Below the pieces are notes generated by a model that did no database searches, was not told where the DNA came from, and was given only the letters and a program-made list of their open reading frames with translations. This document shows, in pieces, positions 32,432-61,068 of a stretch of DNA of 64,000 bases. The stretch is taken from IMG/VR virus record IMGVR_UViG_3300023202_000142, positions 121,325 to 185,324 of that record, one strand, 5' to 3'. The stretch's first letter is position 1; each line of letters begins with the position of its first letter. This DNA comes from a virus. A program made the position numbers and the translations under genes.

Positions 32432-32881
32432 ATGTACCTCGCTGTAGTAGACATATCGACATTGACGCAATTGTTCGCGGAGCAGGGGCCCCTTGCGATT
32501 GTCGCGGTCATCCTGACGTTTCTCGTGACGAAGTTCGTTGACTTCGTTATCGACAGGCGCTCGAAGGCTGTAGATCAGAACCTTATCGAGGGCACAACGA
32601 TTCGTGCCGAGTTGCGCGAGGAGGTGGTGCAGCTCAAGCAGGACATCAAAGAACTGTCTGAGGAGGTCGACATTTGGCGGGAGAAGTATCTTGAGGTCCG
32701 GGATGACCTGGGGGTCACGAAGGTCACGCTGCACGCTGCGAGCGAAGAGTCGAGGATGTTGCGTCAAAAGTTGGTCGAGGTCGTCGAGGTCACGGAGGGC
32801 CAGGGCATTCACCTCGGCGTTTCTATTCGGCCGCTCATTGATTCAATCGAAGGCTCTATTGTGGATGGATCTGACAGTTGA
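32432..32881 (+). CDS. holin-like protein (N-terminal TM plus coiled coil)
   Basis: QGPLAIVAVILTFLV TM then coiled coil; close to endolysin. Confidence 0.5.
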   Translation: MYLAVVDISTLTQLFAEQGPLAIVAVILTFLVTKFVDFVIDRRSKAVDQNLIEGTTIRAELREEVVQLKQDIKELSEEVDIWREKYLEVRDDLGVTKVTLHAASEESRMLRQKLVEVVEVTEGQGIHLGVSIRPLIDSIEGSIVDGSDS

Positions 32882-32906
32882 CAGTGCTGATCGATGTGCA
32901 CATAAT
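32878..32906 (+). promoter_or_regulatory. sigma70-like promoter P1 (TTGACA-17-CATAAT) with GTGCTG..GTGCAC spacer
   Basis: Read directly; upstream of HTH gene. Confidence 0.85.
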
Positions 32907-32959
32907 GCACCAATCCGCAAGCCCCGGCGGAATTCTATACGACGCAGGAGAGTGTTCGA

Positions 32960-33235
32960 ATGAACTTTCACGGTATTGAGGAAGACCCGCTGCCGCCGAA
33001 GACTGTGTGGGCGGTCCGTAAGGCGATGGGTCTTTCGCAGGAAGCCTTCGGTGAAGAGGTCGGAGTGACGCGACGCACCGTCATTTCGTGGGAAAAGGAT
33101 CCACCGGACAACAAGTACGCCCGTGCGTGCACGGGGCCGGCAAGGATTCTGATCCAGAACCACGCCGCCAAGATCAAGGACATCGATCCCGAAATGCAAT
33201 CGCTCCTGCAGGAGCATGGGCTCCTTGCCGCCTGA
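32960..33235 (+). CDS. XRE/Cro-family helix-turn-helix transcriptional regulator
   Basis: VRKAMGLSQEAFGEEVGVTRRTVISWEK; AGGAG RBS. Confidence 0.9.
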   Translation: MNFHGIEEDPLPPKTVWAVRKAMGLSQEAFGEEVGVTRRTVISWEKDPPDNKYARACTGPARILIQNHAAKIKDIDPEMQSLLQEHGLLAA

Positions 33236-34370
33236 TCAGCCAGACATGGGACCACTCACCCCGCGGGAGGTCTTGAAGGGCTTTCTGAGGGCGCTGAAGC
33301 AGTCCTGGGGGCTATTACTTACACCGGACAAGCGTCCAGGGAAGGTTGACGTGTCTCAAGACGAGGTTCTTGAAGCTGTCGGTTGGAATCGCGCCAGACA
33401 CAGCCGGCGCGACACCATGCAGATCCAGAAGGCTCTTGATGTTGGCGTTGACGGGTTCTGGGGGGAGGAGACCGTTACTGCGGTGATGCAGTGGCAGTTC
33501 GATCACGACCTCAAGGTCGACGGGAAGGTCGGCTCCGAGACACTTCGGGCGCTGCAGGATGAACTGAACCCTGAGAAGGAATGGCGGGAACTCGATGACA
33601 TCGAGATCGATCTAATCATTGGTCGAACCGTTGAGGTCGAGGCGGGCTATCAGGGCGACCCCTACGCGGCCATGAACCTCGATGCCGAATATGAGGGTTG
33701 GTTTGACCGGCCGAAACGGGATGCCGAAGGCCGTCGTCTCCGGCCCGCTGAACGGGCTGAGCAGCCAGACCATCGCCCGCACAAGGCTTCGAGGTATGGT
33801 CCGCATGGTGGAATCCACATTGGGTTGAGTTGGGGCATCGTCCAGTTCACGCAGGACGGTGGCTCCCTGGGCCTCGTACTGAAGCGCGCGAACGAGATTT
33901 CCTCGAAGGATGTCACGTCGGTGTTTTGGCCCGATGAGACTGAACTGATTGACGTCTTGAATCGCTCCGGGGCCTCTGGCCTGAAGACGCTTGAGCGCCG
34001 GGGACCCAGAGTCCAGAAGGTCGGCGGCGAAGACCTCTGGAAGGATCCATGGCCCGCGAGATGGGAGGCGGCCTCAAGGCTGGAGACGTTTCGTCGTGCT
34101 CAGCGAGACGTCGCGAGGGCGTCCTACTTTGAGCCGGCCCTGGACATCGTGCGTGATTACGGCTTCACCGGCCAGGGGGCGCTTGCGGTTGCGTTCGACA
34201 TGTCAGTGCAATATGGCCCCGCTGGTGCCAGGAAGTACTTTCGTCGAGCTGGTGAGGGTGCGAGCATCGAGAACGTGATCGCGCAGATCGGAAACGAAAG
34301 ACTCCGTGCGCGTCGTCTGGAGGTGCTGGCGCACTCCGATGTCTGGGTACATTACGAGGATCTTGCATGA
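33216..34370 (+). CDS. endolysin: peptidoglycan-binding domain plus lysozyme-fold catalytic domain
   Basis: IQKALDVGVDGFWG.ET..AV..WQ..H.L.VDG.VG.ET; LSWGIVQFTQ..GSL; FDMSVQYG. Confidence 0.8.
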   Translation: MGSLPPDQPDMGPLTPREVLKGFLRALKQSWGLLLTPDKRPGKVDVSQDEVLEAVGWNRARHSRRDTMQIQKALDVGVDGFWGEETVTAVMQWQFDHDLKVDGKVGSETLRALQDELNPEKEWRELDDIEIDLIIGRTVEVEAGYQGDPYAAMNLDAEYEGWFDRPKRDAEGRRLRPAERAEQPDHRPHKASRYGPHGGIHIGLSWGIVQFTQDGGSLGLVLKRANEISSKDVTSVFWPDETELIDVLNRSGASGLKTLERRGPRVQKVGGEDLWKDPWPARWEAASRLETFRRAQRDVARASYFEPALDIVRDYGFTGQGALAVAFDMSVQYGPAGARKYFRRAGEGASIENVIAQIGNERLRARRLEVLAHSDVWVHYEDLA

Positions 34371-34579
34371 AGAGCGATGCGGCTGATTGGTTGATGCAGC
34401 GGACCCGTGAACTGGTTTGCGACCACGCTCGTGAGCAACTGGAGTCGGATCAGGTCCACCTTGCGGGTCTCGGGATGGAGAACCCCCTTCTGGACAGAAT
34501 GCTGGAACTTGACGATGTCGAGATGCTGCGTGAACTGGCAGCGGTTTCTGCATCGCCGCCGATCGAGGAGGAAGAGTGA
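34367..34579 (+). CDS. hypothetical protein
   Basis: ATGA-coupled 70 aa ORF. Confidence 0.5.
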   Translation: MKSDAADWLMQRTRELVCDHAREQLESDQVHLAGLGMENPLLDRMLELDDVEMLRELAAVSASPPIEEEE

Positions 34580-34824
34580 GCCTAATCGATCGAATCGATG
34601 CGATGCTGGAAGCGAATCCCTATCATGATCGTGGCGGTGAGTTCGTTAGTAAGGCCAAGGTCCGCGCTGGTACATATTCACTCGGACGTAAGCGACACAT
34701 CGTAAGACGCGACGGCGACAAGCTGAAGAAAGCTGTGGCTGATACTGGGTGTGGGCGCGATGCTCGACGCGATGACGGCGATGTCAGGTGTTGGGACAAC
34801 GAGGTCAAGGACGATACCGAATGA
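34576..34824 (+). CDS. small protein with putative head-targeting leader and NPYHD..G.F motif
   Basis: MSLIDRIDAMLE|ANPYHDRGGEF; GGAGG RBS. Confidence 0.6.
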   Translation: MSLIDRIDAMLEANPYHDRGGEFVSKAKVRAGTYSLGRKRHIVRRDGDKLKKAVADTGCGRDARRDDGDVRCWDNEVKDDTE

Positions 34825-35042
34825 TCTACGCTGTGGGAGCTATCTGTTTCATCGTGGGGGTGCTTGCATCATGGTTGGCGCTCAGGGCTCGTTACGACGC
34901 CGACAGGGCAACTGTGTGGGTCGAACCCGCAGAAGAGGGGGTCGTGTTTCGATCTTTCGATGCTGACGCCGTAGAGCGCATCAAGCAGGCTCTTGACGGC
35001 GAGCGGTCCTACACCGTCATGCGTGTCACCCGGCCTGAGTGA
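34821..35042 (+). CDS. small single-TM membrane protein
   Basis: ATGA coupling; N-terminal hydrophobic helix. Confidence 0.55.
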   Translation: MIYAVGAICFIVGVLASWLALRARYDADRATVWVEPAEEGVVFRSFDADAVERIKQALDGERSYTVMRVTRPE

Positions 35043-35089
35043 TTGCATCGTTGGCTGAGTTGGACGAGACTACGCCGTAGGAGGAATTT

Positions 35090-44106: not shown

Positions 44107-45111
44107 ATGGCTCTCATAGGATTCTCGCACACCGGAACGCCTGGAGACGCTTCCGACGGGGAGGGTGTTCACATCCGGCAGACGCTGGACAACAACCTTT
44201 CTGCCGATTGGACGGTACACCCGTTGATCACCTTCGGTTCGGGTGGGGAGACGGGTGACCAGCGTGATTACTTCGTCCTGGAGCATGCCAACGGTCCACA
44301 GATTCTGGTCTATGTGGCTGTGGGTGATGGTGAGGGGGGCAGTCAGGGTCTCGATAGTTCATGGGTCAACAGCTCGTTCAGCACCGGCACTGACCAGACC
44401 GTCTGGGTCGCCCTAGACAAGAACGGCGGTGGCGTGGGGACTGACAGCTTCTATGACAACCTGAACAACAACGGCCTTGATCCCGCCGATTCGAACTTCT
44501 GGAATCAGGTCGAGAAAACGCAGGCTGTTAGATGCGTTGAGTGGTTTGAGGGCTCCGGTCTTTCAACTCTCTACTTCATTGAGGATGATGCGGCTTGCAC
44601 GCTCATCATCTACAGCAACAGTTCGGACGCATCCCGCTCGAACTCAATCAGTGTCGTGCTGATTTCGGAAGAATATGTCGATGACTCCGACAGACCGGAG
44701 GCGGACAAATTACCCACGACCCACGGAGTGCTGGCGGTCCAGGCTGACGATGATGGTGGTGGGAACGATGTCGAGGAGTGGGAGTCCTACATTTTCACAG
44801 GTGTTGGCGACTACAGCTTGAACGGTGGCCTGAACAACATCGACACCTCGTTTTGGCTCCTGGGGTCGAACTCAGCATCAACGGAGCCAGATCTCGACGG
44901 CCGCTACGCGACGCAGACAATTCCGGTGTATGGGTTTGACGACGGGAACAGCAATCCACAGCTCATTCGCGGCGTCATCAACCCAGTGTTGGCACGATTC
45001 ACCCCTCCCGCTGGAGTTCCGCTCGGCATCCGGCGCGATGGCGGAGAGCTGATGCCAGGCCCAGCGCAGATGGCGTTCGGCTGGAGCAATGGTCTCGGCG
45101 ACATTCTCTAG
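44107..45111 (+). CDS. acidic virion-type protein, possibly a distant member of the array
   Basis: 334 aa, Asp/Gly/Ser-rich; W.VHPLITF, PDLDGRY. Confidence 0.5.
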   Translation: MALIGFSHTGTPGDASDGEGVHIRQTLDNNLSADWTVHPLITFGSGGETGDQRDYFVLEHANGPQILVYVAVGDGEGGSQGLDSSWVNSSFSTGTDQTVWVALDKNGGGVGTDSFYDNLNNNGLDPADSNFWNQVEKTQAVRCVEWFEGSGLSTLYFIEDDAACTLIIYSNSSDASRSNSISVVLISEEYVDDSDRPEADKLPTTHGVLAVQADDDGGGNDVEEWESYIFTGVGDYSLNGGLNNIDTSFWLLGSNSASTEPDLDGRYATQTIPVYGFDDGNSNPQLIRGVINPVLARFTPPAGVPLGIRRDGGELMPGPAQMAFGWSNGLGDIL

Positions 45112-45119
45112 GAGAGCGC

Positions 45120-45371
45120 ATGGCTCACTTCAGGTTCGCTGTAATCGAGTTTCTCAACCAACGGGACGTCCGCTTCGTATCTCGTCACGGCAGTGCTGAG
45201 CGCGCCAGATCCTCAGCCAGCAAGCACGATCTCAACCAGGAACTGAATGTGATCGAACTTCACACTGGCGAAATGCCGGGTGTTGGTGACAAGATGTCCA
45301 GAACTGAGGTCCGGGAAAGGTTCCGGTCCGTACCACTGGACACGCCACCGAAGGCGACGGAGAGCACATGA
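45120..45371 (+). CDS. hypothetical protein
   Basis: GGAG RBS, 83 aa. Confidence 0.5.
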   Translation: MAHFRFAVIEFLNQRDVRFVSRHGSAERARSSASKHDLNQELNVIELHTGEMPGVGDKMSRTEVRERFRSVPLDTPPKATEST

Positions 45372-46849: not shown

Positions 46850-46857
46850 ACCACCTC

Positions 46858-46919
46858 TTGACTGTGTGCACAGCGTGCACATATTGTCAGTGCTCCGGGA
46901 GAGACCACCCCGCTCTCCC
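46858..46919 (+). promoter_or_regulatory. promoter P2 (TTGACT-GTGTGCACAGCGTGCA-CATATT) plus 5' hairpin GGGAGAG/CTCTCCC
   Basis: Read directly. Confidence 0.85.
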
Positions 46920-46938
46920 CTGCCAAGAGGAGGTAGCG

Positions 46939-47148: not shown

Positions 47149-47170
47149 ACCCCACACGAGGAGGTAGTAA

Positions 47171-47464: not shown

Positions 47465-47553
47465 GCCTGACTGCACCCGGGTGCGAATCTCGGGCTTGAT
47501 TTGGAGCCACCCCGGGTTGACAATGCGCGACATGTCCCTCAGAGGAGAAAGAC

Positions 47554-47943: not shown

Positions 47944-48368
47944 GCATCGAGACACTGATTGAAGGCTATGTTCTCGGGGAGGCTTCGCTTCGCCAGACCT
48001 ATGACAAGGCCGGCAAAGAGGCCAAAAAGAACTTCGAGGACCCCCGGGCCGCCAAGAAGGTGATCATCGATCTCGCCAAGAGATCCCACTGGGTCTACGA
48101 CTTCATGAAAAAGCTCTCCACCAACCTGGAGCGCTCGAAGCGAGGCTCGGCGGCAGCAGGCGCTTTCCCTCATGAGCCGAACCGCAAGGTCACGAAGATG
48201 TATGATGACCTGCTCAACTTGTTCGTCGACGTGAGGACGGCTCTCAAGAGGAAGGGGTTCGCCAGTGACGAGCGAAATGATCGCATGCAGGAGATGCTGC
48301 AGCGAGTTCAGAAGGGCGACCTTCTACAACGCGAGACCGCCAAGAAGCTGCTTCGCAAGATGTACTGA
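47940..48368 (+). CDS. basic protein with putative head-targeting leader
   Basis: MSIETLIEGYVLGE|A then K/R-rich helical domain. Confidence 0.6.
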   Translation: MSIETLIEGYVLGEASLRQTYDKAGKEAKKNFEDPRAAKKVIIDLAKRSHWVYDFMKKLSTNLERSKRGSAAAGAFPHEPNRKVTKMYDDLLNLFVDVRTALKRKGFASDERNDRMQEMLQRVQKGDLLQRETAKKLLRKMY

Positions 48369-48388
48369 CGGCGGACGACGAGGAAGCG

Positions 48389-48874
48389 ATGACCCAGACC
48401 GGATTCACTGGTCACCCACGCTTTGGTCTCAGCGATGACCCCGGGGACTACGAGGACGACGACATGGAAGAAAGCCTGGTACAACGCATTGAAAGCCTGC
48501 TGACCCCGTCTCCTGCCAACGGAGACCTCGTCGTAGGCATCAGGAACCACCAGGTCCGTGTGTGGCGCGTCGAGGGCACTGAGCGCAATCTGGTGGCCTA
48601 CAGCGACACTCATGGCGGCACCAGGTATTTCAACCATGTCAGCCCTGCGGCGTCGACGGTGGCGCCTGATTTCACCGAGGCTAGAGCGGTGCGCAATGGT
48701 GGCGCCTCGGAGCTTCTCCAGCACTACGCGCCCGATCTCTTCGAGCGGGCCAATGAGGTCTGGGTTGAAGGTGAGGACGAAAAGGACGACGAAGGCAAGG
48801 CGCTGCAGCCCAAGAAGAAACTGAAGCGGCGCAGAAAGAAGACCAAGAGCAAGGTCGATGAAGGTTGGGGTTGA
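48389..48874 (+). CDS. hypothetical protein with ESLVQRIESLL motif and basic C-tail
   Basis: GAGGA RBS; KKKLKRRRKKTKSK. Confidence 0.6.
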   Translation: MTQTGFTGHPRFGLSDDPGDYEDDDMEESLVQRIESLLTPSPANGDLVVGIRNHQVRVWRVEGTERNLVAYSDTHGGTRYFNHVSPAASTVAPDFTEARAVRNGGASELLQHYAPDLFERANEVWVEGEDEKDDEGKALQPKKKLKRRRKKTKSKVDEGWG

Positions 48875-48899
48875 CAGCGTGCACGGAGTTCACTAGATC
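48871..48899 (+). promoter_or_regulatory. promoter-like P3 (TTGACA-GCGTGCACGGAGTTCAC-TAGAT)
   Basis: Family spacer present; weaker -10. Confidence 0.6.
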
Positions 48900-48908
48900 T
48901 GGTCCTGT

Positions 48909-49010
48909 CACGAGTGAGATCGGATGGTGATCCGGCTGCCAGTTCCCGGCAACACACTGGGATGCGTACCTAGCGGGTACGAAGGGGCTCGAAACCCCAG
49001 CTCGTGCTGA
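48909..49010 (+). ncRNA. putative tRNA-like cloverleaf / structured RNA
   Basis: CACGAG(T)/(G)CTCGTG closing stem; CGGAT-GGTG-ATCCG, CCAGT/ACTGG, CGTACC/GGTACG and GGGG-CTCGAAA-CCCC arms; no canonical anticodon loop or CCA. Confidence 0.45.
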
Positions 49011-49155
49011 GCCCGGGGCTCGGGGCCCTGCAATCCCCCCACCCCGTCGTCGAGTGCAGCGGGCATCGGCGCGCACGAGCCCTGGGCTTTCTTCACACCT
49101 TGTCTCGAAACAGTGATGCGGCGATGATGCCTCGTGTTGTCGACACGGGAGCGTC

Positions 49156-49434
49156 ATGCTGGTTTCTTACGTCCAAGCCCTTCTCGAAAAGAAGATGTCG
49201 CCGTTCAAGCGCAAGGATACGCTGAACGACGGCCCTAGGGGCGGCGAGAACGCCAAGGCGAGCAAGTGGGACTGCAAGTGCAAAAACTACAAGTGCACGT
49301 GCACAGATGATGAGGGCAACAAGAAGTCCTTCAAGATCAAGAAGGGCTACAAAAAGAAGTACAACAGAGAGTACAAGGGGCACATGCCGTACAAGCGTTG
49401 GCGCTCCAAGGTGCGAAAGGACAGGGATGGGTGA
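49156..49434 (+). CDS. very basic Cys-cluster protein with putative head-targeting leader
   Basis: MLVSYVQALLE|KK; CKCKNYKCTC; Lys/Tyr-rich. Confidence 0.65.
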   Translation: MLVSYVQALLEKKMSPFKRKDTLNDGPRGGENAKASKWDCKCKNYKCTCTDDEGNKKSFKIKKGYKKKYNREYKGHMPYKRWRSKVRKDRDG

Positions 49435-49762
49435 GATAACCGAGACGGTCGATCGCGTATTGACCGAGCGTGCCCTGAAGGGTTCTGTGGATGTCGCGAA
49501 GGCGAAGCTGTTGGAGCCCAGGGATGTCTTCGGTCGCCAGACGCGTAAGAAGGTGAAATCCGCTCAGATCTGGTCCAGGTACAACTTTGAACTGGACGGC
49601 GGTGCGACTGTCGAGCTTAGGCCGTCGACCAAGGCTGGTAGGTTCAACGCTAAGGTCCAGACTCCTGGTTCTGCCAAGGATCTGACGTTCCTGGGCAAGA
49701 CCCCCAAGGAGCTGCGGAAGATATTTGGGGACCCGGCGGTCCGCGTCAGAATGAAGGTGTGA
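49427..49762 (+). CDS. basic protein with putative head-targeting leader
   Basis: MGEITETVDRVLTE|RA. Confidence 0.6.
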   Translation: MGEITETVDRVLTERALKGSVDVAKAKLLEPRDVFGRQTRKKVKSAQIWSRYNFELDGGATVELRPSTKAGRFNAKVQTPGSAKDLTFLGKTPKELRKIFGDPAVRVRMKV

Positions 49763-49763
49763 G

Positions 49764-50948
49764 ATGGTAGTCGAAGACGTGCAGGTGCTCTTGGAGCGAA
49801 TGTCTCCCCAGGAGGCTCGACGCATTCTCGGGCTCAGTGGTGGGTATCCGTCCAAGGACGAGGTTCAGAAGGCGTGGAAGAAACTGGCCTTCAAGAATCA
49901 CCCGGATCGAGGCGGCGACCCCGACAAAATGTCGAAGATCAACCAGGCACGCGATGTCCTGCTTGGCAAGACGAGTCGTCGCCCTGGAGGGTCGACGCGG
50001 TCATCGACGTCGTCGAACTGGAAGCCTTCGGGCTCAAGTTCCAGCAGGCAGAAGCGCAAAAAACCTGAACCGCCACCTCAAGCGCCCGGAGAGGACCTGA
50101 AGACGGCGATGCGGGCGATGCCTCATGGTGTTGAGTGGATGTTCAGGACTGAGCGCCTGGTGTCCACTGAGCGCAGGTATGCGACGGCGCCAGACGGCTC
50201 GACATACTCACGCGAGATTGAGGGCGTGATCCTCTACGGCCAGACTGGATCTCATCACGTTTTCCTGTCCCTGAAGCGGACGATTCACAAGACTCGTGGC
50301 GGCAGCTCGAATCGGGGCCACGAGGTGTTCGTGACGACATCGCCGCTTCGAACAGATCTTCAGAGGTTCGGGCTCAAGACGATCAAGAGCCTCAAAGATC
50401 ACATGGGGCTCAAGAACTCTGGTCGTCTCCAGTTCTATCGAATCTCGACCGAGGGCGTGAAGAAAGCGGTGACCAGGGGCCAGGCTGGAGACATCCTCTA
50501 CGGGCCGACAGGGGCCTCGAAGACGAAGTTCAGCTTCAAGGGTGTCGTCGAGGCCGCAACGGGCGATGGTGGCCCCAGCGGTGGTGACAGGAAGCACCAG
50601 GTCGAAATGGTTGGCAAAGGGCTGGTCGGCGATGAGTTCGATAAGCGCAAAGAACGGTTCGGCCGCACCAACCGGGTGACGGGTTCAAGGTGGACGATCT
50701 TCGTTGACGGCAAGGAGGTCCGAGAACTCACGGTTGACGAAATCGAGGCCCTGGTTGGTAAGCACTGGTTCGATGCTGTCTACAGCTCCAACAAGTACTT
50801 CGGTGAGCGCGTCAACATCACACGTAAGCGAGGTGGTGGTCGCATGCGTGCCCCCAGCGGAAAGAGGATGCTGAAGATGTTGGCCGACAATCTCGAAGCC
50901 GGGCAGCTCAAACGGTACGTTGAGGCGACGGTCCGTGCGTTCGGCTGA
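49764..50948 (+). CDS. J-domain (DnaJ-like, HPD) protein with long basic C-terminal region
   Basis: ARRILGL..EVQKAWKKLAFKNHPDRGGDPDKMSKINQARDVL. Confidence 0.85.
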   Translation: MVVEDVQVLLERMSPQEARRILGLSGGYPSKDEVQKAWKKLAFKNHPDRGGDPDKMSKINQARDVLLGKTSRRPGGSTRSSTSSNWKPSGSSSSRQKRKKPEPPPQAPGEDLKTAMRAMPHGVEWMFRTERLVSTERRYATAPDGSTYSREIEGVILYGQTGSHHVFLSLKRTIHKTRGGSSNRGHEVFVTTSPLRTDLQRFGLKTIKSLKDHMGLKNSGRLQFYRISTEGVKKAVTRGQAGDILYGPTGASKTKFSFKGVVEAATGDGGPSGGDRKHQVEMVGKGLVGDEFDKRKERFGRTNRVTGSRWTIFVDGKEVRELTVDEIEALVGKHWFDAVYSSNKYFGERVNITRKRGGGRMRAPSGKRMLKMLADNLEAGQLKRYVEATVRAFG

Positions 50949-50949
50949 C

Positions 50950-51014
50950 TTGACTATGTGAATTGCGTGCACATATTCTCCTTGCGGAGGTTTCGACCCA
51001 GACCCCGCGAGGAG
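50950..51014 (+). promoter_or_regulatory. promoter P4 (TTGACT-ATGTGAATTGCGTGCA-CATATT) plus 10-bp hairpin overlapping RBS
   Basis: CTCCTTGCGG (50978-87) pairs with CCGCGAGGAG (51005-14). Confidence 0.8.
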
Positions 51015-51019
51015 GTAGC

Positions 51020-51361
51020 ATGATTCACGCAGACGAGACCGTCAGAAAGGCGATCTACCGTCGAACCCGGTATTGCAACGACGGCGTCTATTACACGCTG
51101 GCGGCCACCAAGAGACACAACACGATCGACAAGGCGCGGTCCTATCGCGCCAGACGTCTCGCTAAGCGCAGCGTCAAGCTCACGGGGCGCGATGCCTGGG
51201 TGCTCGGTCGACTCGAAGCTGGCTGGGTGCCGATGTGGCGCTACACGAGACGCTACGACTCCGACGGTGGCAGGGTTGAGGATCGCGTCCTCACCGCGGT
51301 TCCGCCGGACACCCACCTTCGAGCGGTCAGTTCGAAGCCCGGGTATCGGAAACGGGCTTGA
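51020..51361 (+). CDS. Arg-rich early hypothetical protein
   Basis: GAGGAGGTAGC ATG. Confidence 0.65.
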   Translation: MIHADETVRKAIYRRTRYCNDGVYYTLAATKRHNTIDKARSYRARRLAKRSVKLTGRDAWVLGRLEAGWVPMWRYTRRYDSDGGRVEDRVLTAVPPDTHLRAVSSKPGYRKRA

Positions 51362-51416
51362 CACCGTGCACAGCGTGCACATACTGAAGGTGCCGGGGCG
51401 GTTACCCCACCGTCCC
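51358..51416 (+). promoter_or_regulatory. promoter P5 (TTGACA-CCGTGCACAGCGTGCA-CATACT) plus hairpin with TACCCC loop
   Basis: Read directly. Confidence 0.85.
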
Positions 51417-51432
51417 CACTGAGGAGGTAGCG

Positions 51433-51693
51433 ATGGAGGAACTTTTCGAGAAATTGATTGCCGCGGGTTTCATCAGGACCTCGACTCTCGCGGTCAGCAC
51501 AGCCCGTTCCGATGAGCCCGGGTCCGTGATGGTCGACGGCATCACCTACGACGGTCACTTCGATCTCAATGTTTACGTCGCCAAGGACTCGCGAGATGAG
51601 TACGGAATCCGCGACCACCACCACCACCGGGTCGAAGGCGGCGCCGTCGACGAACTGGTGGCTGAGATCCTTGAGATCTGGGAGGCCGTCTGA
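51433..51693 (+). CDS. early hypothetical protein
   Basis: GAGGAGGTAGCG ATG. Confidence 0.7.
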   Translation: MEELFEKLIAAGFIRTSTLAVSTARSDEPGSVMVDGITYDGHFDLNVYVAKDSRDEYGIRDHHHHRVEGGAVDELVAEILEIWEAV

Positions 51694-51971
51694 TGGGTGT
51701 TCGACGAGACGCACGATTCTGGGCACGCCACTTCATCGAGGAAGATGGCAACCACTTCTCAATGCCGGTCGATCGGTACGTCGAGATGCTCGACGACCAC
51801 CGTGAGTTCGTGATCGATGGTGACGACATCAGTCGCGGAGACTACGTGTTCCGGCATCTCGCCTACTCTACCCTGGTCGGTGCCGTTCGGGCAGCCGCCC
51901 GGGAGATGAGCAGGTATGACGCAGACTCAGACGAGGTAACCCCACCACCACGAGGAGGTAGCAATGGCTGA
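51693..51971 (+). CDS. early hypothetical protein
   Basis: TGATG coupling. Confidence 0.6.
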   Translation: MGVRRDARFWARHFIEEDGNHFSMPVDRYVEMLDDHREFVIDGDDISRGDYVFRHLAYSTLVGAVRAAAREMSRYDADSDEVTPPPRGGSNG

Positions 51972-52356
51972 ACTCATTCATAAATACACTCGCGCCCAGG
52001 CCATCGAGGATGGCGTCCTCGTTGATGTCAACGAGATGGCCACCGAGGCCGGGATCACCTTTCACGCCGCGATGACGTCGTCACTCTACGATGTCATGGT
52101 CCCCACCGACGCAATGGACGGCTACGGCCAGTCCGTCGAGGGTCGTCTCTGGGATTGTTTGTGGATGCTCCACATGGCGATTCGCGGATCGATCCCCTCG
52201 ACCGTCGAGAGCTACGGTCCTGGCCAGGAGCTGCGTTACAAGTTCCTGGCTCTGAACGACGACCTCGAAACAGTCGAGGTTGAGGTCAAGGCCATTACGG
52301 GACCCGGTGACAACATGGAGCCGGTCATCACGCTGATGCACCCGCACGAAGACTAA
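51964..52356 (+). CDS. DUF6573-like mobile-element protein
   Basis: YTRAQAIEDGVLVDV..A.EAG..GQS.EGRLWD.L.M recognised from memory. Confidence 0.6.
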   Translation: MAELIHKYTRAQAIEDGVLVDVNEMATEAGITFHAAMTSSLYDVMVPTDAMDGYGQSVEGRLWDCLWMLHMAIRGSIPSTVESYGPGQELRYKFLALNDDLETVEVEVKAITGPGDNMEPVITLMHPHED

Positions 52357-52367
52357 CGGAGGACTCA

Positions 52368-52949
52368 ATGACTATGAAAACGATTCTGCTGGACGTAGAC
52401 GGCGTCTTGGCCAACTGGATGAAGTCAGCATGTCGTGCCATCGGCGAGGACTACAGCGCCATCATGGGTCGCTTTGACGAGGTCGACTTCGACAGTCGCG
52501 GCGAGCACTGGGGAATCGAGGCGCTGGGCGACATCGACCCCGGTGAACTCTGGGATGCCATTCACGCCGAGGGACGTTCGTTCTGGGCGGAGCTGGAGCC
52601 CTACCCCTGGGCGATCGAGCTTTACGAGGCATGTCGCGCCGAGGCCCCGACGTACATCCTGACCAGTCCGTCTCGACATCACTCGTCGCCGGCAGGAAAG
52701 GTCGAGTGGATGGATCGTCACCTCGGTGGTGGCGAACCCTTCCGGGATTTCCTGATTGGGTCCCCAAAGGAACTCTGCGCCCGCCCGGGCTCACTCCTCA
52801 TCGATGACCGCCCAAGGAATTGCGACCGATTCCGACGCGCCGGCGGTTCGGCGATCTTGTTTCCGACTCCCTGGAATCATCACTGTGAACATGCCAGTGA
52901 CCCATTGGCATTCGTTATGCCCCGCATCAAGCATTGGCTCGCGGGTTGA
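52368..52949 (+). CDS. HAD-superfamily 5'(3')-deoxyribonucleotidase (NT5C-like)
   Basis: LLDVDGVLANW, ILTSP, GKVEWM..H, K..LLIDD. Confidence 0.85.
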   Translation: MTMKTILLDVDGVLANWMKSACRAIGEDYSAIMGRFDEVDFDSRGEHWGIEALGDIDPGELWDAIHAEGRSFWAELEPYPWAIELYEACRAEAPTYILTSPSRHHSSPAGKVEWMDRHLGGGEPFRDFLIGSPKELCARPGSLLIDDRPRNCDRFRRAGGSAILFPTPWNHHCEHASDPLAFVMPRIKHWLAG

Positions 52950-52988
52950 CAGCGTGCACTACGTGCACATACTTTGGGTGCCCACCCA
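52946..52988 (+). promoter_or_regulatory. promoter P6 (TTGACA-GCGTGCACTACGTGCA-CATACT) plus TGGGT/ACCCA hairpin
   Basis: Read directly. Confidence 0.85.
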
Positions 52989-53012
52989 GCACACCACATA
53001 GGAGGTAGCGAC

Positions 53013-53648
53013 ATGAGCAAACGATACGAGAAATCCTACGGCGGGAAATACGATGCCGACCTCGACATTGTCGAGATCGCCAAGCGCGTGAAGAGTGAGA
53101 TCCGCGAGGCGAGCAAGAACGGTGATCTTCCTGAGATGAAGGTCTCGGTGACCACCGACCGCTACAGCGGCGGCCAGAGCCTCAGTGTCCGCATCAAGAC
53201 ACTCCCGGAGGGCTTCGAGGTTTGCAATCCAGAATACGTCGAGAAGATGGTCGAGAACCCCCATGGGTATGACCCGGTCCCCCGCTACAGCGAGAAGATG
53301 CGTGACGTCATCTCGAAGGTCGAGGGCATCGTTGGCGCCTACAACTACGACGGCTCCGATTCGATGATCGACTACTTCGACGTCAACTTCTACACCCACG
53401 TCAATCTCGATGATGATTCGAGCTACTTCCGGTCCGCCAAAGAAGCCTACATCGCGGCGAAGAACTCAGAACCCGAGTTCGACGACACCGTACTGGCGCG
53501 CCGGATTTCGTCCCTGATCGTCGAGGTCGACGATGTTCTCGCTGACATGGATGGCCATCCCCTGGCGGAAGAGGTCAGCCGGGCAGGTACCGCGCTTGAG
53601 CGGATCTACATCAAGATGACTGCTCACATGGAGGATGAAGCGGCATGA
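53013..53648 (+). CDS. LPD29-like (large polyvalent protein-associated) domain protein
   Basis: IAKRVK..K.SV..YSGG.S and YNYD.SD.M.DYFDVNFY; GGAGGTAGCG RBS. Confidence 0.6.
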   Translation: MSKRYEKSYGGKYDADLDIVEIAKRVKSEIREASKNGDLPEMKVSVTTDRYSGGQSLSVRIKTLPEGFEVCNPEYVEKMVENPHGYDPVPRYSEKMRDVISKVEGIVGAYNYDGSDSMIDYFDVNFYTHVNLDDDSSYFRSAKEAYIAAKNSEPEFDDTVLARRISSLIVEVDDVLADMDGHPLAEEVSRAGTALERIYIKMTAHMEDEAA

Positions 53649-55600
53649 ACCAGATTCAGCGCAACCGTGGACGGGTCGAACGCATCGACCCGTCCGATTC
53701 TATAGAGGTCGGCCAGTGGTATTGGGTCGACGAGGACGATGACAAGCTGTGCTGCGTTGTCGAACTGGGGTCGAACTACGCGCTGCTGCGGGGTCCGTCC
53801 CCTCGGGGGTCGTGGTCGTTCCGCGTCCACTTTGATGAGTTCTGGGACCGCTGTGTCCTGGAGCCTAATGCTGAGGATATCCTCGCGGCGAAGATCGCGG
53901 AGATCCAGGATACCGTGAACGGGCTCCTGGGTCGTGCTCGGGAACTGACGAAGAACCTGTCGGTGCCTGACCGAGAGGGGCTGCCGGAACCCGAGACGCG
54001 GGCCCTTGCTCGCCTCAACAGCAACCTGGACCCGAACGCCTACAAGCGCGCGCTCGTGAAGGCCAAGGACGAGACGCTGCCCGACATCTTCAAGCAGATC
54101 AAAGCCGAGCACACCCGATTGGAGCGCTACATGAAGGCGGGGCTGGAGCCGATGAAGGGCGATCTGGCTTCGATGCAGGCAGCGCTGAGCCGTATCAACG
54201 ATCGGATCTTCAGCATCGATCTCTACGCCGGCTTGTCTGAGGAGGTTGTGCAGATCGCGGAGGGGGAGCCGGCGCCGTATGAGGCCAAGGTGCACATCAT
54301 GCAGCGACGCCTCTACATGGATGAGGAGTGCTTGCTCCGCTACAAGGCCGGCGGCATGGAGTTCAGTGATATCGGCCAGTTCGATGCCTGGTTGGCCGAG
54401 CCCGAGAACCTGGAGCGCATCATGCCGTTCGATCGGTGCCTCGTCGCGTTCCGCGTGCGCCGCAAGATGAAGGACCGCTACGGCAAAGAGTTCAACAGTC
54501 CGCTGGGTGTGTTCATTAAGATGCGCCTGGAAGATGCCGACAAGCGCACGTTCATGTATTTTCGTAACGGTGACAGGCTCTACCGGATGTCGACACAGAT
54601 GCAGTTCCCTGAGAAGCTATTCGGCGACGATAGCTTCGAGCTGGCCGAGGTCATGTGGGCGCGCTGCTCGTCGAGCGGCCGCGTCGAAGATGTGATCCCT
54701 GGGCGTCTCTACGAACAGCGTCTCCAGGATCACATGGTGGCCAAGGTCGAGATGGACGCGTTCAAGGAAGCGCACCCCGATTTCAGCCGTTGGAATCGCC
54801 CCGGAGGGGAAAGTGACGAGTTCGAAGCCTGGGACGAATTGCGCAAGGAACGTTACGCGATCGATCGTCGCCTTGACGGCCAGATCGAGAACTACGTCGA
54901 GTTCACGCCGGACACCGTCTATTTCGACGACATCAAGCGGTACGTGAACAAGAAGGTCGTCGAGCGCAATCGCATCGCGTTGATCATGCAGGGGCTTTTC
55001 GACAGATCTCCGGTCTACCATCCCCACCCTCCGGTCGAACTGTGGTCCCAGAAGGGCTTCAACGCGGCCGTGAAGCTCGTCTATGACGACGACAGGGCTT
55101 TGTATGGCCAGGAGGAGCCACCGGACTTCGAAGCGTTCAGGCGCCGCTGTAACGAGTCCCTGGAGACCGGGTCGGTGACATATGGCCAACAGTCTGCCTG
55201 GCGTCGCCACATGGTAGAGCGCTACGACAACGATGATCGGCGGTGGCGCACCGCGGATTATGATTTCGAGAAGATTCCGTATGGCGACCCTGGCCCCGGC
55301 AGCGTCGCGCGCGTCGAGCATTATCACCCCAGGGCTGAGAAGTGTCGTTTCAGGTGGAAGCGCCGTAAGCGTAGCGATTATGCGTGGAATGAGTTCACCC
55401 CGGCAGTCTTCACGTGTCCGCAGGAGAAGTTGCTCAACCTCGACGGCTACAGCCCTGGTGACTACCTGCAGTTCTTCGAGGACCCCCGTACGCGCGCCGA
55501 CTATCTGAAGTGGGCCCCATATCTCCTGACGGCCGAGGACTACCACGCCGGGAAGTTGAGGGTTCGAGAGCCAAACATTCATCCCGATGAGGATTCATGA
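53645..55600 (+). CDS. large hypothetical protein (SH3-like N-terminus, coiled coil, aromatic-rich core)
   Basis: 651 aa ORF, ATGA coupling. Confidence 0.75.
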   Translation: MNQIQRNRGRVERIDPSDSIEVGQWYWVDEDDDKLCCVVELGSNYALLRGPSPRGSWSFRVHFDEFWDRCVLEPNAEDILAAKIAEIQDTVNGLLGRARELTKNLSVPDREGLPEPETRALARLNSNLDPNAYKRALVKAKDETLPDIFKQIKAEHTRLERYMKAGLEPMKGDLASMQAALSRINDRIFSIDLYAGLSEEVVQIAEGEPAPYEAKVHIMQRRLYMDEECLLRYKAGGMEFSDIGQFDAWLAEPENLERIMPFDRCLVAFRVRRKMKDRYGKEFNSPLGVFIKMRLEDADKRTFMYFRNGDRLYRMSTQMQFPEKLFGDDSFELAEVMWARCSSSGRVEDVIPGRLYEQRLQDHMVAKVEMDAFKEAHPDFSRWNRPGGESDEFEAWDELRKERYAIDRRLDGQIENYVEFTPDTVYFDDIKRYVNKKVVERNRIALIMQGLFDRSPVYHPHPPVELWSQKGFNAAVKLVYDDDRALYGQEEPPDFEAFRRRCNESLETGSVTYGQQSAWRRHMVERYDNDDRRWRTADYDFEKIPYGDPGPGSVARVEHYHPRAEKCRFRWKRRKRSDYAWNEFTPAVFTCPQEKLLNLDGYSPGDYLQFFEDPRTRADYLKWAPYLLTAEDYHAGKLRVREPNIHPDEDS

Positions 55601-56178
55601 GCTATCGAATCAAGGATGTCGAAGCCTTCCAGGTCCTCGAACACAGTTTGCGCAGAGTCTGGCCGCAAGCGAAGTGGGTTAAGCTAAACGCGACGAGAAA
55701 CCCCGAGGACACCAGGGTGGGTGTCACTTGGGGAACGATGGTTCTGGGCATCCCTGTCTTGCTGTGGGCTCGCAGAACTCCGTCTGATGGCGCCACGACG
55801 CATGCGGACGTGATAGCTGCTGTTCATGGCCGACCCCCGAGGGGCGTGGAGACCTGGCAAATCCGCATTATTGCGCCGAAACTCGCCCCGTGCGCGCCGG
55901 ATCCTTCTCGACTCAGCTCCTGGACAGATGATGTCATTCTGCAGGGATGGTGGGTCGTCTCGAAGCAGATCGAGCAGGAACGCGCTTACGTTGAGTCGAA
56001 GTCCTGGCTGGCCAGTTCCCTGTCGTCTCTCATCTCTGAGACCAGGGATCTGTGGGACCAGGTGGTGCGTGACACCAGGGCACCAGAGGCTGGCATGGGC
56101 GCTGAGGATAAGATCGCCTGGCAGCGCGCGATGTCGTGCTGGAGTCATGTCATTGAGTCACTCGGTGATTCATCTTGA
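55597..56178 (+). CDS. hypothetical protein
   Basis: ATGA coupling, GAGGA RBS. Confidence 0.55.
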   Translation: MSYRIKDVEAFQVLEHSLRRVWPQAKWVKLNATRNPEDTRVGVTWGTMVLGIPVLLWARRTPSDGATTHADVIAAVHGRPPRGVETWQIRIIAPKLAPCAPDPSRLSSWTDDVILQGWWVVSKQIEQERAYVESKSWLASSLSSLISETRDLWDQVVRDTRAPEAGMGAEDKIAWQRAMSCWSHVIESLGDSS

Positions 56179-56204
56179 CGTGTGAAGACTGTGCACACTA
56201 GGTT
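56175..56204 (+). promoter_or_regulatory. promoter P7 (TTGACG-TGTGAAGACTGTGCACAC-TAGGTT) upstream of ssb
   Basis: Read directly. Confidence 0.75.
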
Positions 56205-56232: not shown

Positions 56233-56637
56233 GTGAGCACAGTCAATCAGTTCAACGTTGTGGGTCGACTGGGTGTCGACCCGGAGCTATCGTACACGCC
56301 AAGCGGCACACCGAAGTGCGTGATCAGCGTAGCAACCGATGTCGGGTATGGTGAGAACAAGGATACGACATGGGTGCGCGCGACGGCTTGGGGCCGCAGT
56401 GCCGAGACGATCGAGAAGTATTTCGCGAAGGGCAAGCTCATCTTCCTCACCGGCGAAATCAGGACCTACAAATACGAGAAGAAAGGTCAGACGCACTATG
56501 GCTGGGGCCTCGATGTGAAGTCCTGGAGCTTCATTGGGGGCCGTGACGAGTCATTCGGCGAGCCCGAGCAGGCCGAAATTCCGGCTGCGCCGGAGTCCTG
56601 GGACCAGGATTTCAGTGATGATGACATTCCTTTCTGA
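56233..56637 (+). CDS. ssb: single-stranded DNA-binding protein
   Basis: VGRLGVDPEL.YT.SG, KGKLIFLTGEIRT, C-terminal DDDIPF. Confidence 0.95.
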   Translation: MSTVNQFNVVGRLGVDPELSYTPSGTPKCVISVATDVGYGENKDTTWVRATAWGRSAETIEKYFAKGKLIFLTGEIRTYKYEKKGQTHYGWGLDVKSWSFIGGRDESFGEPEQAEIPAAPESWDQDFSDDDIPF

Positions 56638-59187: not shown

Positions 59188-59190
59188 GCA

Positions 59191-59217: not shown

Positions 59218-59221
59218 CGAT

Positions 59222-59295
59222 TGGTTCCGAGAGCAGGGGTCGAACCTGCATTTCCGGGTTCAGGGCCCGGCGTCCTGCCATTAGACGATCCCGGA
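59222..59295 (-). tRNA. trnQ: tRNA-Gln(CUG), encoded CCA, non-canonical C33
   Basis: TCCGGGA/TCTCGGA acceptor with U1-A72; D arm GTCTAATGGCAGGAC; anticodon stem CCGGG/CCCGG with loop CCCTGAA; T arm GCAGG-TTCGACC-CCTGC; ACCA end. Confidence 0.92.
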
Positions 59296-59353
59296 GAAGG
59301 CGTCTCCCCGGGGCGGGCCCGGGGGGCCGAGAGGGAGCACCGCCCGACCAATG

Positions 59354-59383
59354 ACAATGTGTGCACGCACTTCACATCGTCAA
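59354..59383 (-). promoter_or_regulatory. promoter P8 (TTGACG-ATGTGAAGTGCGTGCACA-CATTGT) driving the tRNA
   Basis: Read on reverse strand; close to P7 in sequence. Confidence 0.75.
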
Positions 59384-59387
59384 GGGG

Positions 59388-59927: not shown

Positions 59928-60196
59928 GCTGCCTCGTGTAGCTTCGAGTAGGTTTCGTCGCGACGCCGAATCCACTTGGAACGCTTCTCACGGTCGGTGT
60001 GCATGCAGACGTGCGCATACTCATCGAGTCGATCCAGGACAGCCAGCGCAACGGCGTGCGCCGCGTCAGCCCGGCGTGGTCGTCGTGACCATTCTTCGGC
60101 GACGAGCACCGCGAGCCCCACGGCATCCACGACGTCGATCTCGACGGCGTAGTTCATGAGGTCGTGGTGAACGGGTTTGAGGTCGTGTCGGTCCAT
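59924..60196 (-). CDS. early hypothetical protein
   Basis: AGGAGGAACG RBS. Confidence 0.65.
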   Translation of the reverse strand: MDRHDLKPVHHDLMNYAVEIDVVDAVGLAVLVAEEWSRRPRRADAAHAVALAVLDRLDEYAHVCMHTDREKRSKWIRRRDETYSKLHEAA

Positions 60197-60210
60197 TCGT
60201 TCCTCCTGTG

Positions 60211-60567
60211 TCAGGATACGTTGAAGAGAGTTTCGCCGCCGCTGATGACGTCGCCGTCAACAAAGACGTCGGCGTACCCGGTGGAGAGCATGATGGTCTC
60301 AGGATCCGTGTTCTCGGGATCCTCGCTGACGCGCAACCAGGCATCCTCGGCATGCTCCCAGTCGGATTCCAGTGTCTTGACGGCATCGCGGATCTTGCCG
60401 AGTTCGCTGTCGCTCAGCTTGCATGGCCGGGCGCCGATATGTGTCAGCGCCCGAGTGTCGGCTTTGCCGTCCAGTGCGGTGCTGTAGTGGTGGGCTTCCA
60501 GCATCCCTTCGAGGGCTTCGAGGTCGTGGTTCTTGATGGCGTTGTCGATGAATTCCTTGCGTGTCAT
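60211..60567 (-). CDS. early hypothetical protein
   Basis: AGGAGGCAAAA ATG. Confidence 0.7.
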   Translation of the reverse strand: MTRKEFIDNAIKNHDLEALEGMLEAHHYSTALDGKADTRALTHIGARPCKLSDSELGKIRDAVKTLESDWEHAEDAWLRVSEDPENTDPETIMLSTGYADVFVDGDVISGGETLFNVS

Positions 60568-60589
60568 TTTTGCCTCCTGTGTGGTTGGG

Positions 60590-60931
60590 TTATCGGCCGT
60601 AGCGCATCGCTTTGTAGGCCGGGTGAAGGGGCTTGAGCGCGTCGGCAATCCGGCTGACGTCCGCTGACTCTGGAACGCTTTTGAGCGCTTCGCATGTCGC
60701 GCCCGCCAGTTCCATGAGGTCTTTTCGTCGCTTCGCGTAGGTCACGGCGAGAGCGCCGATTCCGTCACGGATGTCGGAGTTGGTGAGGACTGCGAGTGTC
60801 CAGTTCTTGCCGTTGTCGACCTCGCGATAGACGACCACGCGCTCGTCGTCGCGGCAGGTGTATCCTTCGACGTGTTCGATGCGGTCCCGGCAGTGAACAG
60901 GAATGTCTTTGTTTCGCTTCAGTTTCGTCAT
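60590..60931 (-). CDS. early hypothetical protein
   Basis: AGGAGGTAGCG ATG. Confidence 0.7.
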   Translation of the reverse strand: MTKLKRNKDIPVHCRDRIEHVEGYTCRDDERVVVYREVDNGKNWTLAVLTNSDIRDGIGALAVTYAKRRKDLMELAGATCEALKSVPESADVSRIADALKPLHPAYKAMRYGR

Positions 60932-60955
60932 CGCTACCTCCTGGGTCGTGAACAT

Positions 60956-61014
60956 GGGAGGTGGGGTCGCCTCCCGCAGCACCAACAATATGTGCACGCT
61001 GTGCACGGAGTCAA
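60956..61014 (-). promoter_or_regulatory. promoter P9 (TTGACT-CCGTGCACAGCGTGCA-CATATT) plus GGGAGG/CCTCCC hairpin
   Basis: Read on reverse strand. Confidence 0.85.
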
Positions 61015-61039
61015 GGGGAGTTGTGCGATTCGAATCGTG

Positions 61040-61068
61040 TTGACAGGTGTGACATCAGTGCACATAGT
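61040..61068 (+). promoter_or_regulatory. promoter P10 (TTGACA-GGTGTGACATCAGTGCA-CATAGT), divergent from P9
   Basis: Read directly. Confidence 0.85.

Follow-up and report, generated by a model that had tools for sequence, protein, structure and literature searches.

About 45 host-type promoters in the genome of an uncultured T4-like phage (record length 185,324 bp) carry the same dyad, TGTGCAC-N3-GTGCACA in its full form and GTG-N6-GTGCAC in its minimal form (the box), and we regard this box as probably the operator of one sequence-specific DNA-binding protein, built into promoters of the host sigma70 type. The invariance of the box bases amid a variable spacer, the intergenic position of the sites, the use of several registers, the retention of the box in a related phage, and its use as an antitoxin operator in cellular loci together argue for a site read by one factor. 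The initial annotation, made on a window comprising the final 64 kb of the record, had proposed that a single factor controls early transcription. That proposal is supported on sequence grounds, the spacer repeat acting as a putative binding site through which one factor would contact essentially every host-type (early) promoter; the identification of that factor with the XRE protein encoded at 32960 is not established. The regulon of ten sites described in the same annotation is an artefact of the window, within which every copy had been listed.

Distribution and architecture of the class I promoters

The GTG-N6-GTGCAC core gave 55 strand hits in the whole genome, compared with about 2 expected from base composition; 52 of the hits fell in intergenic DNA, which makes up 9% of the genome, and coding DNA held only 3. 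The genome-wide matrix scan that had been suggested as a check was run with a 41-column position weight matrix and returned 31 hits above 14 bits, whereas shuffled sequences gave 0-1 hits above 10 bits. Approximately 31 promoters, termed class I, share the layout cTTGAC-N3-GTGcA-N4-GTGCAC-ATAtT, and nearly all of them are intergenic and aimed at a gene 16-50 nt downstream; a further 8-12 promoters carry the box in a different register. In the window, the double box with up to 2 mismatches was matched 14 times versus 3.6 +/- 1.7 times in shuffles, whereas bare GTGCAC showed no over-representation (20 found, 20.9 expected).

The class I sites have the hexamers and spacing of sigma70-type promoters, with TTGAC at -35 in 27-29 of 31 sites, a 16-nt spacer, and a -10 element CATAtT (A in 27/31, T in 27/31), and a consensus promoter scan selects the same sites. 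The box occupies the spacer from -26 to -12, its two GTGCAC half-sites being themselves palindromic with centers 9 bp apart. The outer GTG/CAC of the dyad is present in 29-31 of the 31 sites, the inner left half being weaker, and the bases of GTG plus GTGCAC are kept in 30-31 sites (1.8-2.0 bits), compared with 1.1-1.6 bits for the -35 element and 0.1-0.9 bits for the intervening spacer bases. Across the 31 sites the box bases are thus more invariant than those of the -35 or -10 elements. The promoter-proximal GTGCAC is invariant, and the distal half-site keeps mainly GTG (C in 20/31, A in 25/31, C in 19/31). The box imposes C at -12 throughout class I, a position at which relatives carry the usual T (TAAGAT); this indicates that the box is maintained at a cost to the -10 element. 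The conserved TG 7 nt past the -10 element is the probable transcript start. A hairpin with an ACCCC loop follows 19 of 28 class I promoters, and a GGAGG ribosome site lies no more than 70 nt away in 23 of 28.

All ten previously noted window sites with TTGAC(A/T/G) were recovered, eight on the plus strand and two (59383 and 61014) on the minus strand, and GTGCAC lies against the -10 element in nine of them, the exception being GTTCAC at 48871. The class I promoter at 46858..46885 (+) has TTGACT, a 16-nt spacer, a perfect box (46866-46880, GTGCAC-AGC-GTGCAC), and CATATT at 46880-46885, and is followed by a leader hairpin. Identical copies of GTGCACAGCGTGCAC are found on the plus strand at 46866 and 51366 and on the minus strand at 60992-61006, the last one base from where it had been placed. 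The second copy belongs to the class I promoter 51358..51385 (+; TTGACA, perfect box 51366-51380, CATACT) and the third to that at 60985..61014 (-; TTGACT 61014-61009, perfect box 60992-61006). The latter forms a divergent pair with a spacing variant at 61040..61068 (+; TTGACA, 17-nt spacer, CATAGT), the box of which (61049-61063, GTGACA-TCA-GTGCAC) lies one base farther from the -35 element than in class I. Two more class I promoters are found at 50950..50977 (+; TTGACT, box 50958-50972 GTGAAT-TGC-GTGCAC, CATATT) and at 52946..52973 (+; TTGACA, box 52954-52968 GTGCAC-TAC-GTGCAC, CATACT), the second heading a 211-aa gene and a conserved 651-aa gene. Upstream of ssb (56233-56637; Pfam SSB match 1.1e-20) is a spacing variant at 56175..56202 (+) with TTGACG, a weak -10 element, and a box (56182-56196, GTGAAG-ACT-GTGCAC) one base nearer the -35 element than in class I, and the minus-strand class I promoter 59354..59383 (TTGACG 59383-59378, box 59361-59375) precedes tRNA-Gln(CUG) at 59222-59295 (-). 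The earlier assignment of these promoters to ssb, the tRNA, and an HTH_3 gene therefore holds; the structured RNA proposed to follow the class I variant at 48871..48898 (+; TTGACA, box 48879-48893 GTGCAC-GGA-GTTCAC, -10 CTAGAT) gave no Rfam match, the approximately 250 nt downstream being devoid of a called gene.

Shifted registers, related phages, and cellular loci

The class II promoters have their -10 hexamer within the box, which spans about -15 to +2 and so extends over the stretch from -10 to +1; GTGCAC runs directly up to the ATG, which points to leaderless genes. Their transcription would start at +1, as suggested by the ATGs placed exactly there. Relative to class I, the register is shifted by +9 at the promoter of the XRE gene, by +11 in GTG-TAATCT-GTGCAC-ATG ahead of genome positions 40017 and 45211, and by +13 at the promoters of csrA and of the operon encoding HTH98, a 98-aa Cro/HipB-like HTH_3 protein. 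As had been noted, the XRE gene's own promoter (32878..32910, +; TTGACA 32878-32883, 17-nt spacer, CATAAT 32901-32906) bears a variant site, GTGCAC-ATA-ATGCAC at 32896-32910, shifted downstream over the -10 element. Apart from the box, class II and class I promoters have no sequence in common, and in both the dyad overlaps core elements (-35, -10, or +1). The occurrence of one box in several registers fits steric repression rather than a contact with RNA polymerase, which would need one fixed register. About 45 natural promoters with a single box in four registers, including a group of leaderless phage genes, should be useful for relating operator position to repression.

The complete relatives G003-G005 (48% gp23 identity) keep TTGACA-N16-TAnnAT and lack the box, which therefore appears to be an add-on to a working promoter. 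A fragment of a related phage, L292, retains it in TTGATC-CT-GTGCAA-TCC-GTGCAC-ATGTTG together with the hairpin and the ribosome-site tag GGAGGTAG. Outside phages, the promoter of a cellular RHH-DUF433 antitoxin carries the same 6-N3-6 box 3-4 nt past TTGAC in 37 of 41 loci, and GTwTAC-N3-GTArAC takes its place at all 21 loci of a sister subfamily. The two subfamilies share 34% identity over the N-terminal domain and 61% over the remainder; the covariation of the box with this DNA-binding domain indicates that in these loci the box is a protein operator. The CI/Cro-like switch region of L186 uses the box three times.

Proposed mechanism, candidate binders, and rival readings

Host RNA polymerase would fire the box promoters immediately upon infection, as suggested by TTGAC, the 16-nt spacer, and CATAtT with A-11 and T-7. 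A protein made early would then occupy the box and, bound at the class I (-26 to -12) or class II position, would block polymerase, shutting off its own gene along with the whole pre-replicative gene set and the promoters for tRNA and small RNA. One protein, most likely a small phage repressor, could in this way switch the entire early gene set off together. No match to Pfam AsiA or MotA_activ was found in six frames of the phage, so control through the box would be its means of ending early transcription. The predicted sign of regulation follows from the position of the box; the DUF433 antitoxin VapB10 has been reported to activate its own promoter via an inverted repeat at -28 (PMC3834315), so repression is not the necessary outcome of a site in the spacer.

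Among possible binders, a dimer of a phage HTH_3 protein, or another phage protein not yet recognised, is the most likely. Three HTH_3 proteins are encoded in the phage genome. HTH98 (genome 72244-72540, -) is a possible, still tentative, choice: its operon begins at a box-covered promoter, L292 encodes a homologue that is 64% identical with a nearly intact recognition helix, SHSTI(A/S)HIE, and HTH98 and the box co-occur in 2 of 2 box-bearing phages versus 0 of 3 box-free relatives. The 91-aa XRE/HTH_3 protein (32960..33235, +), which has an 80% identical homologue on a second metagenome contig (L313), is a more doubtful candidate; it had been singled out as the best one, a position for which HTH98 is at least equally good. 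The link of any candidate protein to the box is one of co-occurrence in two phages.

That the box is instead a recognition element for host or phage-modified polymerase, giving strong rather than repressible promoters, is unlikely. The proximal GTGCAC (-17 to -12), the most invariant part, overlaps the extended -10 zone and position -12, and its invariance beside a distal half that is mainly GTG suggests that it may serve polymerase too. T4 early promoters have conserved bases beyond the sigma70 hexamers, which counts for this reading, as does the retention of lineage-specific spacer bases in distant relatives (TTGACAGACGC, ATG at -18 to -16). It fits poorly with boxes at the +9, +11, and +13 registers, even over the start point, with a TG at -16/-15 rather than the -15/-14 of an extended -10 element, with relatives whose 16-nt-geometry promoters work without the box, and with the identical box being a regulator's operator in cellular toxin-antitoxin loci. 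We also consider it improbable that nothing binds the box and that the repeats are mobile PeSL-type promoter cassettes homogenised by recombination and gene conversion. Such cassettes are documented in T4-type phages (PMC2839356, PMC4122927), and the hairpin and ribosome site shared by many class I promoters are in keeping with them. Several phage cassettes are near-identical over 60 nt (e.g., genome positions 3149 and 168190, 14851 and 75921), and some over more, so that part of the likeness is copy-and-paste. One copy, antisense after gp23, is missing from the relative L056, as expected for a mobile cassette, this being the one insertion difference seen. Homogenisation should, however, also preserve the bases between the half-sites, which vary freely, and the box is present in class II promoters that are otherwise unlike class I. 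The proposal, raised in the initial annotation, that GTGCAC is a methylation target and that promoter activity follows methylation state is highly improbable. The word is a 6-bp (ApaLI-type) palindrome typical of restriction-modification systems and is moderately rare outside promoters (about 82 in total, over half inside boxes), but it is not depleted across the window, many boxes have a second half reduced to GTG, which is no methylase site, and no phage methylase of the C5, N6/N4, or D12 class (PF00145, PF01555, PF02086) was found.

Binding by a host protein, such as the RHH-DUF433 antitoxin of a DUF5615/PIN module or another host regulator, is distinctly unlikely, although in the cellular operator the sequence of the half-sites, the 3-bp gap between them, and the distance to TTGAC all agree with the phage box, as do the degenerate forms of the left half (GTGAAC, GTTCAC). 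The module is common, by record titles, in metagenome-assembled genomes of Acidobacteriota and Verrucomicrobiota, and contigs bearing it surfaced in the metagenome scan. No homologue is encoded by the phage itself: the best matches to the antitoxin had E values of only 0.03-0.4 with tblastn and 1.5-2.6 with hmmsearch --max, hhalign gave a best probability of only 16%, and there was no match to the Pfam domain RHH_1. Against a host binder, the family was found by searching for the box, so that some match was likely; unrelated HTH systems (L186) use the same box; and selection should remove a box that let the host silence 45 promoters, yet the box is invariant. A host binder would wire early transcription to a host factor, either to defend the host or to let the phage sense the state of its host. 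For the specific case of the antitoxin of a resident PIN-like module reading the 45 early promoters, which is quite improbable, early transcription would be coupled to the state of the host toxin-antitoxin system: the host might silence incoming phage DNA, the phage might fire only once the labile antitoxin is lost, or it might soak up antitoxin-toxin complexes.

Relation to known regulatory systems

To our knowledge, AsiA and MotA are missing from T4-like phages that fall outside the enterobacterial group, for which few accounts exist of how early transcription ends; we know of no description of single-box control of a whole early gene set among T4-like phages. From the sequence, the answer may be simple: one operator in every host-type promoter, with three small candidate proteins named. 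The T4 AsiA/MotA switch performs the same task of ending -35-dependent early transcription; there AsiA remodels sigma70 and MotA reads a -30 box (PMC2988021), whereas the present phage has neither protein and an intact -35 element. As described in the available text, the PeSL cassettes of RB49/phi1, T4/PST, and nt-1/KVP40 (PMC2839356, PMC4122927) resemble the phage promoters in being many near-identical sigma70-type early promoters with a G/C-rich stem-loop and a ribosome site, spread over variable regions of a T4-type genome, and in showing possible signs of mobility. The phage likewise has a repeated early promoter with a stem-loop and Shine-Dalgarno sequence in variable regions. The PeSL stem-loop is given there as a terminator for upstream transcription, whereas the phage hairpin lies after the start point; that text mentions no spacer element, the words 'spacer' and 'repressor' being absent from it, whereas the defining feature of the phage set is an invariant dyad box, present in non-cassette promoters as well.

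In the lambdoid Cro/CI operators (434, P22), a short dyad site also overlaps promoter elements, a small HTH_3 dimer reads it (in the phage, a candidate only), and the regulator's own promoter bears the site. Those systems have two control regions, whereas the phage is T4-like with about 45 promoters and no sign of lysogeny, and its GTGCAC half-sites are themselves palindromic with the 9-bp center spacing described above. In the temperate actinophages phiC31 and L5, one repressor, which maintains lysogeny, acts through tens of genome-wide sites (conserved inverted repeats and stoperators, respectively) beside or inside early promoters; the L5 sites lack symmetry and affect elongation. The number of sites per repressor is similar to that proposed here, and the sequences are unrelated. 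The operator of the RHH-DUF433/DUF5615 (COG2442-PIN) toxin-antitoxin systems is identical to the box, GTGCAC-N3-GTGCAC, 3-4 nt past TTGAC and between -35 and -10, but serves one cellular operon, which is autoregulated and has a leaderless message, and the phage has no homologue of its protein. In VapBC10 of Synechocystis, VapB10 is the reported activator and the repeat sequence differs from the phage box (PMC3834315). The covariation of the box with the RHH domain in this widespread toxin-antitoxin family provides a ready specificity-variant pair, GTGCAC versus GTTTAC/GTAAAC.

The double box across the phage genome

The record containing the window (its bases 121325-185324) is a single virus record of 185,324 bp with a G+C content of 59%. 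Pfam matches to the T4-type portal gp20 (1.7e-52), the prohead protease gp21, and the major capsid protein gp23 (3.6e-63) identify a T4-like phage, and no close relative was found among GenBank phages (megablast of window 46000-54000, zero matches). Profile searches of the phage for AsiA and MotA, the T4 early-to-middle switch proteins, were negative, the T4 late promoter TATAAATA has zero occurrences in the whole genome, and no common motif was evident in the regions upstream of the late genes.

The ten window promoters that the initial annotation had assigned to a GTGCAC-N3-GTGCAC regulon were all as described, and the window held no further copy. Identical copies of the repeat were also present, although the one on the minus strand lies at 60992-61006, one base from its annotated position. 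The size given for the regulon did not hold, with ~45 promoters across the genome instead of ten. As a single word, GTGCAC occurred in the window at the chance level (20 versus 20.9 expected); the double box gave 14 matches at ≤2 mismatches, versus 3.6 in shuffled sequences, and four perfect copies. A position weight matrix was built on the annotated sites and iterated, the whole genome was scanned, and shuffled genomes served as the control. The scan returned 31 matches above 14 bits, and the shuffled genomes gave 0-1 above 10 bits. The core GTG-N6-GTGCAC had 55 strand matches versus ~2 expected from composition, and only 3 of these were in coding DNA, which makes up 91% of the genome.

Almost all of the matrix matches were intergenic and aimed at a gene starting 16-50 nt past the predicted transcript start. 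The consensus of the class I promoters, in which the box lies between -35 and -10, is cTTGAC-N3-GTGcA-N4-GTGCAC-ATAtTG-N4-TG. Conservation across the 31 sites was 29-31/31 for GTG and 30-31/31 for GTGCAC, compared with 26-29/31 for the -35 element, and was far lower for the bases in between. The -10 element is CATAtT, with a spacer of 16 nt; its second base (A) and its sixth (T) are each present in 27/31, and the conserved TG seven bases past the hexamer probably marks the transcript start. With this geometry the box occupies -26 to -12, which forces a C at -12. Immediately ahead of a gene-free stretch (genome 89133-89726) are a lone box, GTGAAG-GCT-GTGCAC, and a class I-like promoter, TTGACG-gtt-GTGAAG-ctc-GTGCAT (89137-89190, plus strand, locus L030).

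Shifted registers and alternative readings

In the class II promoters the box encloses the -10 hexamer, and plausible -35 hexamers are found 16-17 nt upstream. The sequences GTG-TAATCT-GTGCAC-ATG and GTG-TAGTCT-GTGCAC-ATG precede genome positions 40017 and 45211, and similar sites stand before 51141 and 55385. Because transcription at sites of this type is expected to begin precisely at the A of the ATG, the genes look leaderless; past the -10 element come GTGCAC and, immediately, the ATG, a Shine-Dalgarno site is lacking, and gene calling done independently arrived at identical start codons. Apparently leaderless phage genes were located outside the window, at genome 40002-40019, 45196-45213, 51123-51143, and 55369-55387 on the plus strand and 73013-73060 on the minus strand (loci L028 and L029), and such genes are unusual in a T4-like phage.

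The last of these sites (73060-73013, reading along the minus strand) is the promoter of the operon encoding HTH98, a 98-aa Cro/HipB-like protein. In this promoter and in that of csrA, the box GTACAC-N3-GTGCAC begins one base ahead of TACACT/TACACA. In the promoter of the XRE gene (a 91-aa HTH_3 protein at window 32960), GTGCAC-ATA-ATGCAC overlies CATAAT, in agreement with the variant site originally ascribed to it. With class I as the reference register, the displacement of the box is +11 (40017/45211 type), +13 (HTH98 operon and csrA), and +9 (XRE). The CsrA homologue itself (genome 77823-78056, minus strand, locus L029; Pfam 7.8e-20), whose promoter is box-covered, may act on early leaders, many of which have GGA-rich ribosome sites.

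These several registers argue against a contact made by RNA polymerase, which would need a single register, whereas a steric repressor tolerates shifts. A methylation switch on GTGCAC, offered earlier as an alternative, found no support, as no C5, N6/N4, or D12 methylase was present in the phage. Reading GTGCAC-N3-GTGCAC as a hairpin, as a terminator scan had flagged at one site, was rejected because the degenerate boxes cannot pair. Copying and pasting of promoter cassettes is real: near-identical pairs occur, 19 of the 28 class I promoters share a leader hairpin with a (C)ACCCC loop that begins a few bases past the predicted start (for example, window 46897-46930 and 51395-51425) and is also found on L292, a fragment of a relative, and GGAGG lies ≤70 nt from the predicted start in 23/28. 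This behavior resembles the promoter-early stem-loop cassettes of T4-type phages. Copying, however, explains neither half-sites that are invariant amid free spacer bases nor a box that recurs in class II promoters of unrelated sequence. The sequence evidence supports the proposal that the spacer repeat would be recognized by one factor. A full-text literature search returned no description of the box or of an operator in T4-type early promoters.

The same box in cellular loci

When metagenomes were scanned for the promoter pattern, the matches listed included >100 contigs and were dominated by a cellular toxin-antitoxin promoter. Most of these contigs carried TTGAC-ttt-GTGCAC-agt-GTGCAC-A directly 5' of a conserved leaderless gene of ~125 aa with a weak DUF433 match, with a DUF5615/PIN-like gene after it, and the two are a type II toxin-antitoxin pair. 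The family (L207-L286 in bacterial genomes, L087-L206 on metagenome contigs) is widespread, with 80-88% identity across phyla and leaderless antitoxin genes. For comparison we used 80 genome loci, mostly from Acidobacteriota and Verrucomicrobiota. The GTGCAC box was present in 37/41 loci of antitoxin subfamily A, and GT(T/A/C)TAC-N3-GTA(A/G)AC in 21/21 of subfamily B. The first 45 residues of the two subfamilies are 34% identical and the remainder 61%; the operator (GTGCAC versus GTTTAC/GTAAAC) and the N-terminal 45 residues change together. The AlphaFold model of the antitoxin (pLDDT 88.9) has an extended N-terminus and two helices; its matches to ribbon-helix-helix (RHH) antitoxins and Arc are weak (Foldseek E ~0.8-3, rmsd 2.1-2.8 Å over ~45 residues), as is the best match of its C-terminal part, DUF433 structure 2ga1 (E 0.066).

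The subfamily comparison shows that a 6-N3-6 box at such a promoter position is a protein operator and does not point to the binder in the phage. No phage homologue of the antitoxin was found by tblastn, hmmsearch, or hhalign, a weak tblastn match at genome 16785-16901 disappeared in profile searches, and RHH_1 had no profile match in the phage. Since the DUF433 antitoxin VapB10 reportedly acts as an activator, by way of a repeat located at -28 (PMC3834315), we inferred the sign of regulation from the class II positions. On the 4.4-kb metagenome contig L186, TTGAC...GTGCAT-N3-GTGCAC occurs three times around a divergent CI/Cro-like gene pair whose proteins are unrelated to those of the phage; with this independent user, the box type must have arisen more than once.

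Relatives and candidate binding proteins

The box is absent (zero copies) from three complete T4-like IMG/VR genomes (G003-G005, 186-198 kb; ~48% gp23 identity), whose early promoters, TTGACA(G/A)ACGC...ATGnnGTAAGAT with a 16-nt spacer, have the same geometry. The box has therefore been added to a type of promoter that works without it. The early promoters of these genomes are uniform, with the lineage-specific spacer words TTGACAGACGC, ATG at -18 to -16, and TAAGAT. A closer relative is known from fragments only. One of them, L056, carries late genes at 70-83% nucleotide identity; L292, from the same sample, has TTGATC-CT-GTGCAA-TCC-GTGCAC-ATGTTG followed by a GGCGG/CCGCC hairpin, whose loop is ACCCCA, and by GGAGGTAG, which indicates that the box was kept in the lineage. 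Searching IMG/VR for the exact promoter pattern yielded 22 single matches and no second box-rich genome. Homologues of a 651-aa early protein, tried as an anchor, were ≤46% identical with unrelated neighborhoods and of no use for promoter comparison, and a PAPS-reductase-like protein and the endolysin led only to distant or box-free records. Just before the window (genome 115532-115572, minus strand, locus L031), a full class I promoter lies directly past the gp23 stop and antisense to gp23, where L056 has a terminator hairpin and lacks this promoter; it could be a cassette that was inserted recently, or the source of an antisense RNA made early and directed against a late gene.

A six-frame search found three HTH_3 proteins in the phage: HTH98 (genome 72244-72540, minus strand; 9e-13), XRE (window 32960-33235), and a protein of 141 aa (genome 78108-78533, minus strand) that aligns with XRE across the HTH region. 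HTH98, whose nearest solved relatives are the HipB and Xre antitoxins, is encoded by the second gene of its box-covered operon, and its only detectable homologue is on L292 (64% identity, helix-turn-helix almost unchanged). The metagenome contig L313 encodes a homologue with 80% identity to XRE; because it starts just past the expected box position, this contig is uninformative on the box. None of the three proteins was found in the box-free relatives. Such co-occurrence with the box, seen in very few genomes, is not proof. XRE, originally named as the best candidate, is a possible binder and is not favored over HTH98. The early regions also encode a TnpB/Cas12f-like protein (genome 8801-10516, minus strand), a HicA toxin homologue (44920-45162, plus strand), and a small serine recombinase of the resolvase family (74857-75531, minus strand).
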